Shown here in pieces: positions 28,808-34,192 of a stretch of 64,000 bases of DNA (position 1 is the first letter of the stretch; each line of letters opens with the position of its first letter). Under the pieces are notes generated by a model. The model was not told where the DNA came from and made no database searches. It saw only the letters and a list, made by a program, of their open reading frames with translations. Origin of the DNA: Candidatus Nomurabacteria bacterium (GTDB lineage: Bacteria > Patescibacteriota > Patescibacteriia > HK-STAS-PATE-3); assembly GCA_023898465.1 (NCBI GenBank), contig CP060223.1, forward strand, positions 96,001 through 160,000. The letters run 5' to 3'. Made by a program: the position numbers and the translations under genes.

Positions 28808-29194
28808 ATGCCACGAGTCATTCATTTTGAAATTCATGCCAGTGATCCAGAACGAGCTGCGCAGTTTTATGCACGCGTTTTTGATTGGGATATACAGAAG
28901 TGGGATGGTCCAGAAGAGTACTGGCTAGTAAACACCGGTGCAGATACGCAAGCCGGTATCAATGGCGCAATTTTTAGGCGTCAGGGTGAATTAAGCCAGC
29001 ATGATGCGGTGATCGCCTTTGTGTGTACTATTGATGTGCCGAATGTTGATGCGTATATAGAGAAAGTGAAGCAACATGGTGGACATGTCGAATTGCAAAA
29101 AATGGCCGTGCCCGGAGTGGGCTGGATGGCATATTGCAAAGACACCGAAGGAAATATTTTTGGGATGATGCAAGCTGACCCGGAGGCAGTTTAA
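28808..29194 (+). CDS. VOC (glyoxalase/bleomycin-resistance) family protein
   Basis: MPRVIHFEIHASDPERAAQFYARVFDW... gives 128 aa with a typical VOC fold pattern. Confidence 0.7.
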   Translation: MPRVIHFEIHASDPERAAQFYARVFDWDIQKWDGPEEYWLVNTGADTQAGINGAIFRRQGELSQHDAVIAFVCTIDVPNVDAYIEKVKQHGGHVELQKMAVPGVGWMAYCKDTEGNIFGMMQADPEAV

Positions 29195-29195
29195 G

Positions 29196-29659
29196 ATGCA
29201 ACACGAACTACTCGATATTATCAATGAAGAGGACGAGGTAATAGGCCAAGCAACTCGGCAAGAGTTGTATGATAAGGGCCTTACTTGTCGCATCGTGCAT
29301 GTGTTTGTGCAAAATAGCCAAGGCCAGTTTGCCATTCAGAAACGCAGTGAAGTGGTGAGCTTTCTCCCGGGCCACTGGAGCTCCTCGGCCAGTGGACATG
29401 TCAAAAAAGGCGAGTCATATGACGAAGCGGCTGCACGTGAACTGCAAGAAGAGTTAGGCATTGAAGCACCTTTAGAAAATGCCTTAACAACTTGGTACAC
29501 CGTGCCAGACCGAAATATCCGCCGTCGTATTGGCGTTTACCTTGCTAAGCACGAGGGACCTTTTGAGCTTGAGGCAATTGAAGTGGCTGAAGTTGTTTGG
29601 CATGAGCCTGAAGAAGTCTTAGCAATGGCCAAGAAAGGCGAGCCATTCCAACCGGAATT
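29196..29659 (+). repeat. Direct repeat, copy 1 (464 nt) of the Nudix gene
   Basis: It aligns with 30597-31061. It starts at the ATG and ends at ...GAGCCATTCCAACC(G/A)GAATT. Confidence 0.9.
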
Positions 29660-29774
29660 GGCAATTAGGAAATCATATTCACCCTATCGAAAGAGTATCT
29701 GGTCATTACATTGCTTTATTGCTCGTAATTGTCAGAAGGCAGGCGAACCACAATTGGACGGGGGAGAAAAATAG
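29196..29774 (+). CDS. Nudix hydrolase (copy 1, intact Nudix box, C-terminus replaced by insert-derived sequence)
   Basis: The Nudix box GHVKKGESYDEAAARELQEELGI fits GX5EX7REUXEEXGU. Homology with copy 2 ends at 29659, and the last ~38 codons read into the AT-rich insert. Confidence 0.75.
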   Translation: MQHELLDIINEEDEVIGQATRQELYDKGLTCRIVHVFVQNSQGQFAIQKRSEVVSFLPGHWSSSASGHVKKGESYDEAAARELQEELGIEAPLENALTTWYTVPDRNIRRRIGVYLAKHEGPFELEAIEVAEVVWHEPEEVLAMAKKGEPFQPELAIRKSYSPYRKSIWSLHCFIARNCQKAGEPQLDGGEK

Positions 29775-30596
29775 AAGACCAGCTTATTACTTTTGAAGAC
29801 TTCTCGCGTGTAATGATTATGTTTACTGAGCGCGAGACTTGTTCCAGGTTTTACCAGATGCGACTGGATCCACAGAAGAAGAAAGAATTCTATAAGATTC
29901 TTTTAATACCTAAAATGGAAGAATCCGGAAATATTAAAATATTCGGCATGGATTGGCTGAAATTTGCACGATCTTTTAATTTTCACTTGCAGGGGCTGGG
30001 TGTGATGTTATTTTACAATCAAAAACTCATAAAGATAAACGATTGAATATTGATTTTTATCTCCATCAATTCTTTTTAACATTAAACATTCATTAGAGTT
30101 GTTTGTAAAAATGACAATGGAGATATTAGATCAAAAAGTTAAAAGACAACACAATACATTAAGCAATTTAATAATAGTCGAAGGTGTTATAAGGAAGTTG
30201 GATAATATCGTTTGTAGATATTTGGCTTCAAAGCAGACTAAGTAAATCAAAAGGTAAGTATGATACGTATTATCTAGACACATGGAGGAACGGATGGAGG
30301 GAAATTCGAGTGATGGTGGAGTACTACAGCAATTTAAACTTTTGAAAGATCGTGGACTTTCTCAAAAATTATTAAAAGATACTGAGAACACCTTATTTCG
30401 ATATCCTGATTCCAGCATGATAAAGAAGTTGAAGTATAATGAGGTTTTTGCAAAAATTAATATTCTTGACGTTAAAAACTTTAAGAAAGACGTTAATAAT
30501 TCCGGAACACTATTTACAGATCTTTTTCTCATACTTTTATTTTTTCGATACGAGATAGTCGAAGGTGTTGATTAGAGAGTTATTATATAAATATGT
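29660..30596. other. AT-rich 937-bp segment inserted between the Nudix repeats
   Basis: The composition drops abruptly to strongly AT-rich. The segment is bounded exactly by the two repeat copies. No terminal inverted repeats or recombinase gene were seen. Confidence 0.6.
30282..30575 (+). CDS. Hypothetical 97-aa ORF inside the AT-rich insert
   Basis: An uninterrupted ORF in very AT-rich DNA is unusual in itself. GGAGGA precedes the second in-frame ATG (30294). I recognise no family. Confidence 0.3.
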   Translation: MEERMEGNSSDGGVLQQFKLLKDRGLSQKLLKDTENTLFRYPDSSMIKKLKYNEVFAKINILDVKNFKKDVNNSGTLFTDLFLILLFFRYEIVEGVD

Positions 30597-31110
30597 ATGC
30601 AACATGAACTACTCGATATTATCAACGAAAGGACGAAATGTCAGGCCAAACAACTCGGCAAGAGTTGTATGATAAGGAGCCTTACTTGTCGTATCGTGCA
30701 TGTGTTTGTGCAAAATAGCCAAGGCCAGTTTGCCATTCAGAAACGCAGTGAAGTGGTGAGAGCTTTCTCCCGGGCCACTGGAGCTCCTCGGCCAGTGGAC
30801 AGTCAAAAAGGCGAGTCATATGACGATGCGGCTGCACGTGGAGTGCAAGAAAGAGCTAGGCATTGAAGCACCTTTAGAAAATGCCTTAACAACTTGGTAC
30901 ACCGTGCCAGATCGAGATATTCGTCGTCGTATTGGTGTTTATCTTGCCAAGCACGAGGGACCATTTGAGCTTGAGGCAATTGAAGTGGCCGAAGTTGTTT
31001 GGCATAAGCCCGAAGAAGTCTTAGCAATGGCTAAGAAAGGTGAGCCATTCCAACCAGAATTTCTCGACATGTTTAAGCTTGTTATTGAGAGGGACACCAA
31101 TGAAAATTAA
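30597..31110 (+). pseudogene. Nudix hydrolase copy 2, frameshifted 5' half with native 3' end
   Basis: It is the same gene as 29196. It carries several indels relative to copy 1 (for example aagggcctt versus aaggagcctt, and ggacatgtcaaaaaagg versus ggacagtcaaaaagg) that destroy the Nudix box. From ELGIEAP onward the frame is intact through the native end ...FLDMFKLVIERDTNEN. Confidence 0.8.
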
Positions 31111-31750
31111 AAAGTATCTTCATTCCTGTCTCCTCATTGAAGAAAATGGAAAGCGCTTGTTGATTGATCCGGGCAAGTTTTCTTTTGGAGATGAGGGGAT
31201 AAAAGCTGAAGAAGTAGGTGCAGTGGATGCAATACTAATCACGCACGAACATCAGGATCATTACTTTCCCGAAGCACTACGCGCTTTTAAAAACCTAGGC
31301 GATTGCGAGATTATCACCCATGCAGCAATTGGTAAGCTGCTTGATGAGGAAGGAATCGCTCATACACTTCTACAGGATGGTGAAGAAAGGGAGGTGGTTG
31401 GTTTTCATGTAAAGGGCTTTGCACGAAGTCACGGTCCTCTACCTTTACCTGTGCCAGACAACTTTGCATATCTTATTAATAGTAGATTATTGCATCCAGG
31501 TGATTCCTATGAGGCAAGTGATATTAGCTGCGAAGTGCTCGCCTTACCAGTCGTCGCGCCCTGGGCCAAGCTGACCGAAACAGTGGAATATGCAAAAGCG
31601 GTTGGCGCAAAAACAGTTATTCCAATTCACGACGCCTTTCTCAAAGACTTTATGCGTCACGGCGTGTACTACAATGTAGCAAAGATGAAGCTTGAGGAGC
31701 AGCATATTGCTTTTCAGGTTTTAGAAAGCGGCGACGAATTCGAGATCTAA
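31100..31750 (+). CDS. MBL-fold metallo-hydrolase
   Basis: I moved the start to ATG 31100 (MKIKKYLHSCLLIE). ITHEHQDH is the HxHxDH motif. Confidence 0.75.
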   Translation: MKIKKYLHSCLLIEENGKRLLIDPGKFSFGDEGIKAEEVGAVDAILITHEHQDHYFPEALRAFKNLGDCEIITHAAIGKLLDEEGIAHTLLQDGEEREVVGFHVKGFARSHGPLPLPVPDNFAYLINSRLLHPGDSYEASDISCEVLALPVVAPWAKLTETVEYAKAVGAKTVIPIHDAFLKDFMRHGVYYNVAKMKLEEQHIAFQVLESGDEFEI

Positions 31751-32042
31751 AATGAGTTAAAAAGACGGCAGTTGAGACAAGCCCAACTGCCGCGTGGACG
31801 CCTTCTCTGTGTTTCAGAGATGGTGTGGACCTGTTTGGTCCAACTCGACTGTAGTACAGTTGAGGGGATTTGTATAGCGGCATTTTTATTAGAAAAAGTC
31901 CCATACCACACTGGAATGTAAGGTATCTTTTTAAGCGGGACAGGAAACGCTGACATTTTTGCTTGACGACTTCCTTCTTAAGGAGTATGTAAAGAAGGCT
32001 AGTTTTTTGTTCTTTGCATTTCAGAGTAACAGGAGGTTGGGG

Positions 32043-32369
32043 ATGCATATATGTGGGGTACGTCCGGCAGCTCAAGTTGTGAGAGAGGCTCCTGGAGCAC
32101 GAGTGCCTGTTGGTCGGAGCGTTTACTACTATTCTCAGCTGAAAGTAGCGGCGCTTTCCTTGGATCCAGGTGCTATGGTCAAGGTTGGTGATGTGATCGA
32201 ATTCGAGGCGAGCAGGAGACGAAGGTTGTGTATTGTGGTTGGAGAAATGGAGGTCAACGGAAGACGTGTCGAGGAAGTTTCAGGCCCTTGCGAGGTCGGT
32301 GTCCAGGTCGGAAGGTGGATTCGCTGGGGTCAGCATCCGATTTACCGTATCGATGCTCCCTCCGCATGA
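32043..32369 (+). CDS. Small GC-rich ORF, EF-Tu-domain-2-like beta-barrel pattern (108 aa)
   Basis: ATG 32043 is preceded by AGGAGG (32031-32036). KVGDVIEFE...IVVGEMEVNGRRVEEVSGPCEVGVQV resembles translation-factor domain 2 barrels (unverified). A terminator-like hairpin plus T-run follows at about 32380-32410. Confidence 0.4.
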   Translation: MHICGVRPAAQVVREAPGARVPVGRSVYYYSQLKVAALSLDPGAMVKVGDVIEFEASRRRRLCIVVGEMEVNGRRVEEVSGPCEVGVQVGRWIRWGQHPIYRIDAPSA

Positions 32370-32446
32370 AGCGCGTACGAGCCGTCAGCATTTTGTTGGC
32401 GGCTTTTTCATTGACTAAGCTTAGGGAAAACTGCTAGCGTGCACAT

Positions 32447-34192
32447 ATGGAAATTTTCTTTCGTGCCCTCAAACAATACAAAAAGATTGCTATTAGCGCG
32501 CTTGTGCTTGCAGCTATTAATCAGGTTTTTTCCTTACTTGATCCCCAGATATTCAGAATCCTAGTTGATCGCTATGCCAGTCGACCAGAGGAATATAGTT
32601 CACCTGACTTTTTCCGAGGAGCTTTCCTGTGGGCGCTCGGCATTATCGGCGTTGCGTTTATTTCTCTAGTCGCGAGAAGCTTCCAGGATTATTACGTCAA
32701 TGTTATTAGTCAGAGAGTAAGTACCAATCTTTACGCACAGAGTGTAGGATATGCCTTTGCATTGCCTTTTGCCGTGTTTGAGGACCAGCGTTCCGGTGAG
32801 CTGCTTCAAAAGATGCAGAAGGCAAAGACCGACATTGAAAAGGTGATTCGTAGTTTTGTAAATGTGGTTTTCTTGTCAGTCATCGGAATGCTCTTTGTAC
32901 TTGTCTATGCCTTTTTTGTGCATTGGCTGGTTGGTTTGGTCTATACGCTCATTATTCCGACGATTGCTTTCTCTGTGTTAACGCTTAGTCGTCGTATTAA
33001 GAAGGCGCAGTCAGCTATTGTGACAGAGACCGCCGCATTATCTGGGTCCACCACGGAAACATTGCGCAATGTTGAGTTAGTAAAGAGCTTGGGATTGGAA
33101 GAGCAAGAAGTGAGTCGATTGAATCAAGTGAATGATCGCATTCTTGATTTGGAGCTTAAAAAAGTGCGCCTCGTCCGAGCGCTGAGTTTTGTGCAAGGCA
33201 CTTTATTGAATGCTTTACGATCCGGACTCATCCTGCTTATGCTTTGGCTTATCTACCAAGGCAACATTTCCATTGGCGAATTTCTAAGTTTATTTATTTA
33301 TTCCTTCTTTGTATTTCAACCGTTGACTGAGCTTGGCACTGTTATAACTGATTTCCAAGAAGCTCGGGCCAGCAGTGAAAAGCTGCAGGAGATTCTAGCC
33401 ATGCCCGAGGCGCCTAAGCCCGAGCAGCCGGTTTCACTGAATGCGCTGCAGTCAATTATTTTTGACAATGTAGTATTTCAATATCAATCTAATAGCGTGA
33501 GTTCAGTCGAGCATATTCACGCGGAGGTTCACTCGGGTGAAACCATTGCTTTTGTCGGTCCGTCTGGCTCGGGTAAGACGACGCTCATGAAATTAGTCTT
33601 GGGTTTATACCAACCAAGCCAAGGACAACTTCGTTATAATGATATACCCGGATCGGCTATTCAGATTGATGAGCTGCGGAAGAAAATTGGTTTTGTCGGG
33701 CAGGAGACGCAACTTTTTGCCGGGACCATCCGTGAGAATTTGCAGTTTGTCCAGCCCGAGGCTGATGAGGTTACGTGTTTGGAGGCGCTTAAAAAAGCCG
33801 CGGCCATGAATATTATTGAGCGAGGCAAGCAAGGGCTAGACACAAAGATCGGCGAAGGTGGTTTGAAACTTTCCGGTGGCGAGCGTCAACGTCTAGCCAT
33901 TGCACGGGCACTGTTGCGTAATCCAGAGCTCCTCATTTTTGATGAAGCTACCAGCAGCCTTGATTCCCTGACTGAAAAAGAAATCACCCAGACTATCCAG
34001 GAGCTCGGAAAAGAAAATAATCAGCGCATGACTTTATTGATTGCGCATCGACTCTCAACAGTTGCTCACGCTGATCGCATTTATGTTTTAGAGAAGGGGA
34101 AGATTGTTGAGCAGGGTAAGCATGAGGAATTGGTCCAAGCTGGCGGATTGTATGCAGCGTTGTGGCGTCAGCAAAGCGGCGCGACTGAATAA
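32447..34192 (+). CDS. ABC transporter, fused permease/ATPase (exporter type)
   Basis: An N-terminal domain of six TM helices is followed by Walker A GPSGSGKTT, the signature LSGGERQR and Walker B LLIFDEATSSLD. Confidence 0.9.
   Translation: MEIFFRALKQYKKIAISALVLAAINQVFSLLDPQIFRILVDRYASRPEEYSSPDFFRGAFLWALGIIGVAFISLVARSFQDYYVNVISQRVSTNLYAQSVGYAFALPFAVFEDQRSGELLQKMQKAKTDIEKVIRSFVNVVFLSVIGMLFVLVYAFFVHWLVGLVYTLIIPTIAFSVLTLSRRIKKAQSAIVTETAALSGSTTETLRNVELVKSLGLEEQEVSRLNQVNDRILDLELKKVRLVRALSFVQGTLLNALRSGLILLMLWLIYQGNISIGEFLSLFIYSFFVFQPLTELGTVITDFQEARASSEKLQEILAMPEAPKPEQPVSLNALQSIIFDNVVFQYQSNSVSSVEHIHAEVHSGETIAFVGPSGSGKTTLMKLVLGLYQPSQGQLRYNDIPGSAIQIDELRKKIGFVGQETQLFAGTIRENLQFVQPEADEVTCLEALKKAAAMNIIERGKQGLDTKIGEGGLKLSGGERQRLAIARALLRNPELLIFDEATSSLDSLTEKEITQTIQELGKENNQRMTLLIAHRLSTVAHADRIYVLEKGKIVEQGKHEELVQAGGLYAALWRQQSGATE

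Follow-up and report, generated by a model that had tools for sequence, protein, structure and literature searches.

Direct repeats of a Nudix gene segment around resident gene remnants in a Candidatus Nomurabacteria genome

Two copies of the first part of one Nudix hydrolase gene, lying in the same orientation on either side of 937 bp of AT-rich DNA, raise the question whether a mobile element has entered the gene and duplicated its target or whether genes already resident at the locus have been rearranged. The locus lies in a Candidatus Nomurabacteria genome, within a stretch of 64,000 nucleotides (contig CP060223.1, positions 96,001 to 160,000) that is called the window throughout and whose source is a single 1.08-Mb MAG contig.

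The direct repeat, its two copies and their junctions

The features of the locus are listed below; NudixA and NudixB are two different Nudix families, and B1 and B2 are the upstream and downstream copies of NudixB.

28808..29194, + strand: VOC/glyoxalase-family gene (Pfam PF00903), with an orthologue upstream of NudixA in the relatives L002 and L082
29196..29659, + strand: B1, a second copy of NudixB nt 1-464, intact (PF00293, E=2e-18); NudixB is a YfcD/IDI-like Nudix gene (170 aa in its native form)
29196..29774, + strand: chimeric ORF of 192 aa (USN53647.1), 154 NudixB codons followed by 38 NudixA-derived codons
29657..29659, + strand: novel junction of NudixB nt 464 with NudixA nt ~314, from comparison of B1, B2 and the NudixA genes of L082 and L002
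29660..29913, + strand: NudixA 3' end, an apparent pseudogene remnant with several frameshifts (codons ~106-192 of a NudE/ADP-ribose-pyrophosphatase-like Nudix of ~190 aa)
29915..30575, + strand: apparent ORF219 pseudogene, an AT-rich orphan with an intact counterpart in the sister haplotype L082
30576..30596, + strand: native 21-nt spacer between ORF219 and NudixB, identical in L082 (1366-1386)
30597..31110, + strand: B2, NudixB at its native position, 5' half apparently pseudogenised (5 indels in the alignment to B1)
30820..31110, + strand: 96-aa ORF (USN53648.1, H6760_00555), the intact 3' part of B2, its stop 11 nt inside the MBL gene
31100..31750, + strand: MBL-fold hydrolase gene (PF13483), the conserved downstream neighbour, its start overlapping the NudixB end

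The segments 29196-29659 and 30597-31061 form a direct repeat with 432 of 463 aligned bases identical (93.3%; BLAST E=0), and no further copy was found by BLAST in the 64-kb window. When the L002 orthologue is included, B1 and B2 are 93.5% identical to each other, compared with identities to L002 of 87.9% for B1 and 85.4% for B2. The left edge of the repeat is the ATG, preceded by the VOC stop codon in copy 1 and by unrelated AT-rich sequence in copy 2. In B1 the Nudix box is perfect (GHVKKGESYDEAAARELQEELGI; consensus GX5EX7REUXEEXGU) and the top NCBIfam match, which stays below the cut-off, is YfcD. The VOC stop codon is separated from the B1 ATG by 1 nt, and the VOC 3' end holds a GGAGG (29182-29186) that is predicted to serve B1 as Shine-Dalgarno sequence.

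In B2, on the other hand, five indels were located, all in the 5' half (-1 at 30629/30, +1 at 30678, +2 at 30758-9, -2 after 30801 and +1 at 30850), and the Nudix box is destroyed by a change of RE to RG followed by a +1 frameshift. No indel lies in the 3' half, which keeps the native C-terminus together with the 11-nt overlap with the MBL start (31100) and may still be translated as the 96-aa ORF. An independent short-read contig (L001) matches the window from 30882 to 32478 at 100%, the MBL gene included, and the NudixB-MBL arrangement was also found in L002. These alignments bear out what had been described from the letters alone: a repeat starting at the Nudix ATG, a first copy with intact box that reads about 38 codons into the intervening DNA, and a second copy with native C-terminus, MBL overlap and 5' frameshifts, the two being decayed in complementary parts.

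The right end of B1 is joined to NudixA at a 3-nt microhomology (ATT), a few bases ahead of which both parental genes also have CGGA. B1 takes the place of the VOC-NudixA spacer and of the beginning of NudixA (~313 nt). At the left junction (stop codon, 1 nt, ATG), which is highly precise, no microhomology is evident. A 1-nt deletion at 29668 sets the NudixA-derived tail of the chimeric ORF into the NudixA reading frame; when this deletion is undone in silico, an unrelated 25-codon tail is obtained. The stop codon TAG of the chimera arises from an A6 to A5 deletion at 29767.

Origin of the intervening DNA and ancestral gene order

The DNA between the repeats (29660-30596) has a GC content of 32.7% compared with 47.9% for the window. 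The sequence-only reading had accordingly spoken of an AT-rich insert; the richness in AT stands but the single insert does not, as the composition is uneven (~41-43% GC in 29660-29900, 25-35% in 29900-30600) and, judged from comparison with relatives, the 937 bp are two gene remnants, the NudixA 3' end and ORF219, both resident DNA. Positions 29657-30655 align with L082 439-1446 at 96.6% identity, with differences that are nearly all small indels. The NudixA remnant is 70% identical in nucleotides to L002 710-954 and ~99% identical to L082 once indels are set aside, and tblastn recovers NudixA residues 110-142 and 141-189 in two separate frames of it. ORF219, an intact 219-aa gene in L082, carries ~14 small indels in the window and is broken into three frames, resulting in ORFs of 105, 48 and 97 codons.

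In L082, a sister haplotype from the same sample as the organism of the window, the genes follow the order VOC end, NudixA, ORF219, 21 nt, NudixB start, and in L002 the order VOC, NudixA, 62 nt, NudixB, MBL; there is no duplication in either. Sequence comparison with these two database relatives, both short contigs of which L082 includes only 60 nt of NudixB, shows the ancestral order to be VOC-NudixA-(ORF219)-NudixB-MBL. Over those 60 nt L082 matches B1, with 1 difference, and not B2. A search anchored on the MBL gene in genome representatives and metagenome contigs returned MBL identities of at most 43% and no Nudix neighbours, while the 90% protein clusters at the locus were all singletons and yielded no more of the L082 haplotype. 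Tandem Nudix genes, considered beforehand as a possible normal state of the locus, do exist in the relatives, but as members of the different families A and B and not as two copies of NudixB.

These gene orders bear directly on the insertion of a mobile or foreign 937-bp element into a Nudix gene with a 464-bp target duplication. Such an insertion would agree with the AT-rich spacer and with ORF219, a gene of foreign composition (31% GC) that L002 lacks, and transposons likewise place direct repeats around a compositionally distinct segment. However, the target-site duplications of transposable elements are 2-14 bp long whereas this repeat measures 464 bp, and the segment consists of resident genes, the NudixA 3' end and ORF219, in the position and order that they have in relatives lacking the duplication. 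The spacer yielded no transposase, recombinase, terminal repeats, phage or plasmid similarity or RNA element, in agreement with the earlier failure to see a recombinase or terminal inverted repeats, and the spacer occurs only once in the window. Contradicted by L082 and L002, in which this DNA belongs to intact genes of the locus ahead of just one NudixB, a mobile-element insertion is highly improbable. The previous proposal of an insertion with a long target duplication and a cargo of unknown nature is not supported, the same DNA being present at the same place in both relatives without duplication; the new element of the locus is copy 1 and not the DNA between the copies.

The ORFs of the spacer gave no Pfam, PHROG or PADLOC match, and neither its DNA nor its proteins showed similarity to phage or plasmid records. 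No exact-protein records were found for the VOC protein or for spacer ORF proteins of 97, 93 and 105 aa. Rfam covariance models gave no match in 29000-32600 even at E<=1 and, at the gathering threshold, only 2 tRNAs in the whole window; a self-splicing intron or structured RNA in the spacer is rejected on this absence of matches.

On account of its composition and its absence from L002, ORF219 may be an earlier acquisition that came to lie between the two Nudix genes. Neither end of the ORF219 region is significantly similar to the spacer between these genes in L002, and only the composition (31% GC) favours a gain of ORF219 over its loss from L002. Fold prediction points to an all-helical protein resembling HEPN domains, with N55, K57, H58 and E61 as invariant residues; ORF219 represents a very rare orphan family, possibly HEPN-like. 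In comparison with HEPN toxins (HEPN-MNT, abortive infection), it lacks the canonical Rx4-6H motif (no Arg 4-6 residues ahead of the His), a sequence match to HEPN families and an MNT partner, and its 219 aa exceed the size of one HEPN domain. The family has no match in Pfam or NCBIfam and ORF219 has no sequence match in PDB and no viral fold match. In PADLOC, a weak BrxB match was obtained for a distant relative only (P0129), and none for P0127 and P0128.

Selection, indels and the possibility of consensus error

Changes derived in B1 fall at codon position 3 in 7 of 9 cases and are synonymous in 8 of 9, showing, as far as codon patterns can, that this intact copy evolves under purifying selection. 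Substitutions derived in B2 lie at codon position 3 in 4 of 12 cases in the 5' part, where every codon position is affected, vs 7 of 8 in the 3' part (Fisher p=0.028; binomial p=0.0026). All ~19 indels of the locus are confined to 29657-30850 and none is found in B1 (P=6.5e-4 under a uniform rate). Of the six simple substitutions by which the window departs from the sister haplotype, five are G/C to A/T, the bias that relaxed sequence would show. It is somewhat probable, as part of the whole reading proposed below, that the NudixA tail, ORF219 and the B2 5' half are decaying, with long-read consensus error possible for the indels since, in 1 kb of the window compared with L082, indel events outnumber point substitutions by 18 to 8 (~2:1).

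The artefact explanation has a weak form, in which the ~19 indels are long-read errors and ORF219 and B2 are in fact intact, and a strong form, in which two co-occurring haplotypes were mis-joined; taken together we consider it unlikely. Natural decay does not usually produce an indel excess of about 2:1; long-read consensus error typically does, and several of the indels are homopolymer contractions (A6 to A5, T6 to T5, T5 to T4 twice, G3 to G2). The single 1.08-Mb contig suggests long reads, closed Patescibacteria MAGs from such samples are known (Nanopore plus Illumina-polished), and the same sample holds a haplotype with intact genes and >99% of aligned bases identical in this region. On the other hand, B1 is as repeat-like as B2 but indel-free, the 1.6 kb downstream match short-read data at 100%, and no split genes occur elsewhere in the window. 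Frameshift noise across the window is ruled out, since elsewhere each overlapping pair of ORFs consists of two separate, complete genes. Many of the indels lie outside homopolymers, two complex multi-base replacements are present (29810-29818 and 30637-30642), one indel restores the frame of the fusion and, in B2, two pairs of indels are mutually compensating. Regarding the strong form, the junction of NudixB nt 464 with NudixA nt 314 joins non-homologous sequence, a link that an overlap-based assembler would not make. Moreover, three Logan contig ends from an independent read set (k=31) lie at a distance of precisely 30 nt (k-1) from a variant base, suggesting de Bruijn forks between two haplotypes or copies, and these forks fit the presence of the B1 variant T at 29225.

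Proposed history of the locus and its meaning

The locus is an ordinary case of genome rearrangement and microevolution and not a mobile-element insertion. As to the order and mechanism of events, we favour, with slightly better than even confidence, a segmental duplication with replacement that was mediated by microhomology and after which redundant parts were lost. The initial 464 nt of NudixB would have been copied over the VOC-NudixA spacer and the beginning of NudixA (~313 nt), either through a single microhomology-mediated double template switch or through tandem duplication of the segment from NudixA nt 314 to NudixB nt 464 and subsequent deletion of the upstream NudixA-ORF219 unit. The outcome would have been an intact NudixB catalytic domain right behind VOC, provided with a good ribosome-binding site and fused to a NudixA tail, which a 1-nt deletion would then have put in frame and a second deletion truncated. 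B1, probably the functional NudixB copy, would have taken over the function and stayed under purifying selection, while the sequences left redundant or headless decay: ORF219, the end of NudixA and the 5' half of native NudixB. What is preserved of the original NudixB is its 3' end, where the ribosome-binding site of the MBL gene and the overlap with the MBL start lie.

This history shares with segmental duplications that create chimeric genes (MMBIR/FoSTeS-type) a new junction between non-homologous sites of neighbouring genes at a 3-nt microhomology, a duplicated segment that is closest to a paralogue in its own genome, and the selection of one copy while the others decay. It differs from them in that the full upstream NudixA-ORF219 unit is missing, which calls for either a double template switch or a further deletion, in the precision of the left junction to the start codon, and in the mosaic divergence of B1 and B2. 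Third-position differences between the copies affect 7 of 105 codons in the first 314 nt vs 12 of 50 in the last 150 nt (p=0.0035); a simple recent duplication predicts otherwise, and allelic recombination or gene conversion is therefore needed too.

Recombination of a resident with an incoming gene copy, which the sequence-only reading had offered as its second option, may have taken place, the mosaic divergence and a Campbell-type topology being compatible with it. Under a Campbell-type insertion-duplication, a circularised 1.4-kb fragment of an L082-like donor (NudixA nt 314, ORF219, NudixB nt 464) would have entered a VOC-NudixB-MBL recipient by a single crossover in NudixB, duplicating the 464-nt fragment on both sides of the incoming DNA; this we consider rather unlikely. 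The topology agrees exactly, with the left edge of the repeat at the ATG, where upstream homology of donor and recipient ends, and the right edge at the circle junction. As in known Campbell insertions, gene-fragment direct repeats flank incoming DNA, one truncated at its 3' end and the other with the native 3' end. An L082-like donor is present in the same sample, nearly all differences of B1 from B2 in the 3' part are silent, as between alleles of two strains, and at the VOC end 4 synonymous changes within 16 nt separate the window from L082. Against this, no "empty" VOC-NudixB haplotype was found in a very thinly sampled database, NudixA standing between VOC and NudixB in both relatives, and the few silent differences in the first 314 nt disagree with the uniform donor-recipient divergence predicted along the repeat. 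With a crossover near nt 314, likeness to B2 is predicted for the start of L082 NudixB, but B1 is what its first 60 nt resemble. Furthermore, there is no vector, replicon or selectable element here, and the "incoming" DNA is chromosomal and from the same locus. It is doubtful that the locus records a Campbell-type integration of chromosomal DNA, 1.4 kb long and circularised, taken up from a sister strain living alongside; if it does, the locus would directly show from genome sequence that natural transformation, with illegitimate circle formation, occurs in an uncultured population of Patescibacteria, and the indel-dominated decay would report the neutral mutation spectrum of the lineage.

The value of the locus lies first in a correction, an apparent cargo insertion with a giant target duplication being a local rearrangement of resident genes. 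It also offers a clean, datable case in a reduced Patescibacteria genome of the birth of a chimeric gene, the fast decay of redundant DNA and the loss of NudixA, a widely conserved Nudix of the Patescibacteria (689 homologues, mostly from this group). Provided that the indels are genuine, a relaxed stretch of 1.2 kb set beside an intact co-occurring haplotype would give a rare view of the neutral mutation spectrum in an uncultured lineage, a spectrum that then appears indel-rich and biased from GC to AT.

The direct repeat and its spacer

The direct repeat at 29196-29659 and 30597-31061 (432/463 identities, 93.3%; BLAST E=0) had no third copy in a BLAST search of the 64-kb window. The ORF of copy 1 (B1) continues 38 codons past the repeat to a TAG at 29772-29774, giving a 192-aa ORF (PF00293, E=2e-18). 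Copy 2 (B2), at the native position of the gene NudixB, contains five indel events (-1, +1, +2, -2, +1), every one before 30851, retains the native C-terminus and overlaps the start of the downstream MBL-fold hydrolase gene (MBL) at 31100. The GC content of the 937-nt spacer between them is 32.7% compared with 47.9% for the whole window. Annotated proteins from both copies (USN53647.1, USN53648.1 (H6760_00555) and USN53649.1) are found in the Candidatus Nomurabacteria MAG, a single contig of 1,082,586 bp. The sequence-only reading was accurate in all its descriptive points. The locus comprises:

29196-29659, B1, the 5' 464 nt of NudixB with a perfect Nudix box
29660-29913, 3' third of NudixA, a different neighbouring Nudix gene, by similarity to NudixA of the relatives L002 and L082
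29915-30575, ORF219, a 219-aa gene split over three frames, by alignment to L082
30597-31110, B2, NudixB at its native position

L001, a Logan short-read contig of run SRR12358676, is 100% identical to window 30882-32478, and therefore the window's organism is present in that independent read set. L082, from the same run and sample, carries the 3' end of the upstream glyoxalase-family gene (VOC) and, beyond a spacer, NudixA (192 aa) and ORF219, both intact, with NudixB starting 21 nt further on and represented by its initial 60 nt; L082 positions 439-1446 match window 29657-30655 at 96.6% identity, with differences that are nearly all small indels. L002, from another run and at about 79-88% nucleotide identity to the window, has the order VOC, NudixA (195 aa), 62 nt, NudixB and MBL, and its NudixA 3' end is 70% identical to window 29657-29893. 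Since the spacer DNA is found upstream of NudixB in these genomes without the duplication, it is resident, and its three-frame ORF219 accounts for the 105-, 48- and 97-codon ORFs of the window. Both relatives therefore contradict an insertion with a 464-nt target duplication, and the reading of the spacer as inserted unknown cargo should be dropped. On gene order, the new element of the window is B1, which has taken the place of the spacer that follows VOC and of NudixA up to nt ~313.

In NCBIfam, the best-fitting Nudix models are of YfcD/IDI type for NudixB and of NudE/ADP-ribose-pyrophosphatase type for NudixA, both below cut-offs. The NudixA family is large (689 matches at E<=1e-3, mostly Patescibacteria among the source names shown), and neither NudixA nor ORF219 was found a second time in the window. 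ORF219 comes close to being an orphan: among 1.84 billion representatives searched exhaustively, three clusters were found (itself, one at 41% and one at 31% identity), a word-indexed search matched only itself, and no Pfam or NCBIfam match was obtained. Its AlphaFold model, from a 3-sequence alignment, is all-helical (pLDDT 74, pTM 0.74). With a GC content of 31% against 42-49% in its neighbours, and absent from L002, ORF219 probably entered between NudixA and NudixB prior to the rearrangement, a loss being the alternative to this insertion. ORF219 contains the 15-nt sequence ATAGTCGAAGGTGTT twice as an exact direct repeat (30174-30188 and 30555-30569, 381 nt apart), also in L082; the repeat encodes IVEGV each time (residues ~86-90 and 214-218), has a chance expectation of ~2e-4 per 700-nt segment and may be an internal duplication or recombination scar. 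Two distant ORF219 relatives, P0128 (L085:4272-4946), positioned after NrdR and a class II ribonucleotide reductase, and P0129, give no functional context; PADLOC gave no match for the family proteins P0127 and P0128, and a weak match to BrxB (E=2e-5) in P0129 alone.

Two further observations concern L002. Its native NudixB (L002:1009-1561) is damaged too, with ATG changed to AAG (possible upstream start at 1009) and a 2-nt deletion near 1165 splitting it into 53-aa and 145-aa ORFs, so that the NudixB N-terminal region seems to be degenerating independently in the two lineages. Between MBL and an ABC transporter gene, ~650 nt (window 31751-32446, L002:2202-2795) are without detectable similarity between homologous flanks. 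The window interval is rich in GC (50-55%), has a strongly positive GC skew and no Rfam match, and contains a 136-aa ORF without Pfam match (31959-32369) ending at a terminator-like hairpin (32379-32405); the L002 interval also holds a 136-aa ORF, but on the other strand and unrelated.

Junctions and support for the rearrangement

At the right junction, NudixB nt 464 is joined to NudixA nt ~314 at a common ATT, with CGGA slightly upstream in both parents. The joined positions are non-equivalent in the Nudix fold, which rules out a paralogue crossover and implies illegitimate, microhomology-type joining. At the left junction, the VOC stop codon and one base precede the NudixB ATG, and a GGAGG in the VOC 3' end lies nine bases upstream of it. 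Overlap assemblers do not invent junctions joining non-homologous sequence, and as this one does so, it counts for a real structure. Moreover, L082 starts exactly 30 nt ahead of the first base at which it departs from the window, its final 31-mer opens with the single base that distinguishes it from B1, and L001 starts exactly 30 nt ahead of the first B2-specific base; these three contig ends are de Bruijn forks at k=31, which shows that the SRR12358676 read set contains both variants. The rearrangement is very probably real.

Three facts speak against the structure and the indels being real: indel events (18 per kb) outnumber point substitutions (8 per kb), a near-identical intact haplotype co-occurs in the sample, and the source is a single-contig MAG, suggesting long reads. 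In favour, the indels are limited to 29657-30850 and absent from the equally repeat-like B1 (P=6.5e-4), many lie outside homopolymers, two are complex replacements, and the 1.6 kb downstream matches short-read data perfectly. Elsewhere in the window, ORFs that overlap in pairs proved to be separate, complete genes, and 5/6 simple substitutions are G/C to A/T. The indels are likely genuine, at a lower confidence than the rearrangement.

Divergence and selection in the two copies

Third-position differences between B1 and B2 number 7 per 105 codons in nt 1-314 versus 12 per 50 in nt 315-464 (Fisher p=0.0035); 29292-29509 is almost identical between them, and silent divergence in the last 150 nt far exceeds window-L082 substitution divergence in the relaxed spacer (<1%). 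A single recent duplication is insufficient for such a mosaic: either allelic recombination later exchanged one 3' segment for that of a more divergent strain, or the copies descend from different alleles. The last six VOC codons (29179-29194 versus L082:31-46) display four differences, all synonymous (including TAA versus TGA), after at least 30 identical bases, and this sharp jump beside a rearrangement junction suggests a recombination tract boundary.

Derived changes were polarised with L002 as outgroup. Of nine in B1, seven are at codon position 3 and eight are synonymous (binomial p=0.008). The first 254 nt of B2 carry 12 derived substitutions over all codon positions (4 at position 3) and the five indels, the first four of which form two compensating pairs; its last 210 nt carry eight derived changes, seven at position 3 (p=0.0026), and zero indels. 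NudixB as a whole has been constrained between lineages, with 39/56 differences between B1 and L002 NudixB at position 3. On these patterns, B1 looks functional and the 5' half of B2 looks dead; the B2 3' part looks constrained or recently so. A 1-nt deletion at 29668, nine bases beyond the junction, returns the tail to the NudixA frame and an A6 to A5 deletion at 29767 produces the stop codon of the chimeric ORF, frame effects which point to selection on that ORF.

Possible routes from the ancestral gene order

The favoured reading starts from an L082-like ancestor (VOC-A-ORF219-B-MBL), from which the order VOC-B1::A3'-ORF219-B2-MBL could be reached in two ways. In the first, a single double template switch would jump from the VOC end ahead to the start of B and, once B had been copied as far as nt 464, return to A nt 314. 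In the second, [A314...B464] would be duplicated in tandem and the A-ORF219 unit lying upstream would then be deleted. B1 would thereby acquire a strong ribosome-binding site and keep its catalytic domain, NudixA would be destroyed, and ORF219 with the old NudixB 5' half would turn dispensable and then decay. The 3' end of the old NudixB would be kept on account of the MBL ribosome-binding site and start overlap that it contains, and may be translated as a 96-aa ORF. In the main rival, Campbell-type integration, a circularised donor fragment enters a VOC-NudixB recipient; this accounts elegantly for the repeat edges, but it matches the allele pattern poorly and no recipient haplotype was found.

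Taken together, the locus shows a chimeric gene forming and pseudogenes decaying in a Patescibacteria genome; the case is real and well resolved, yet ordinary.
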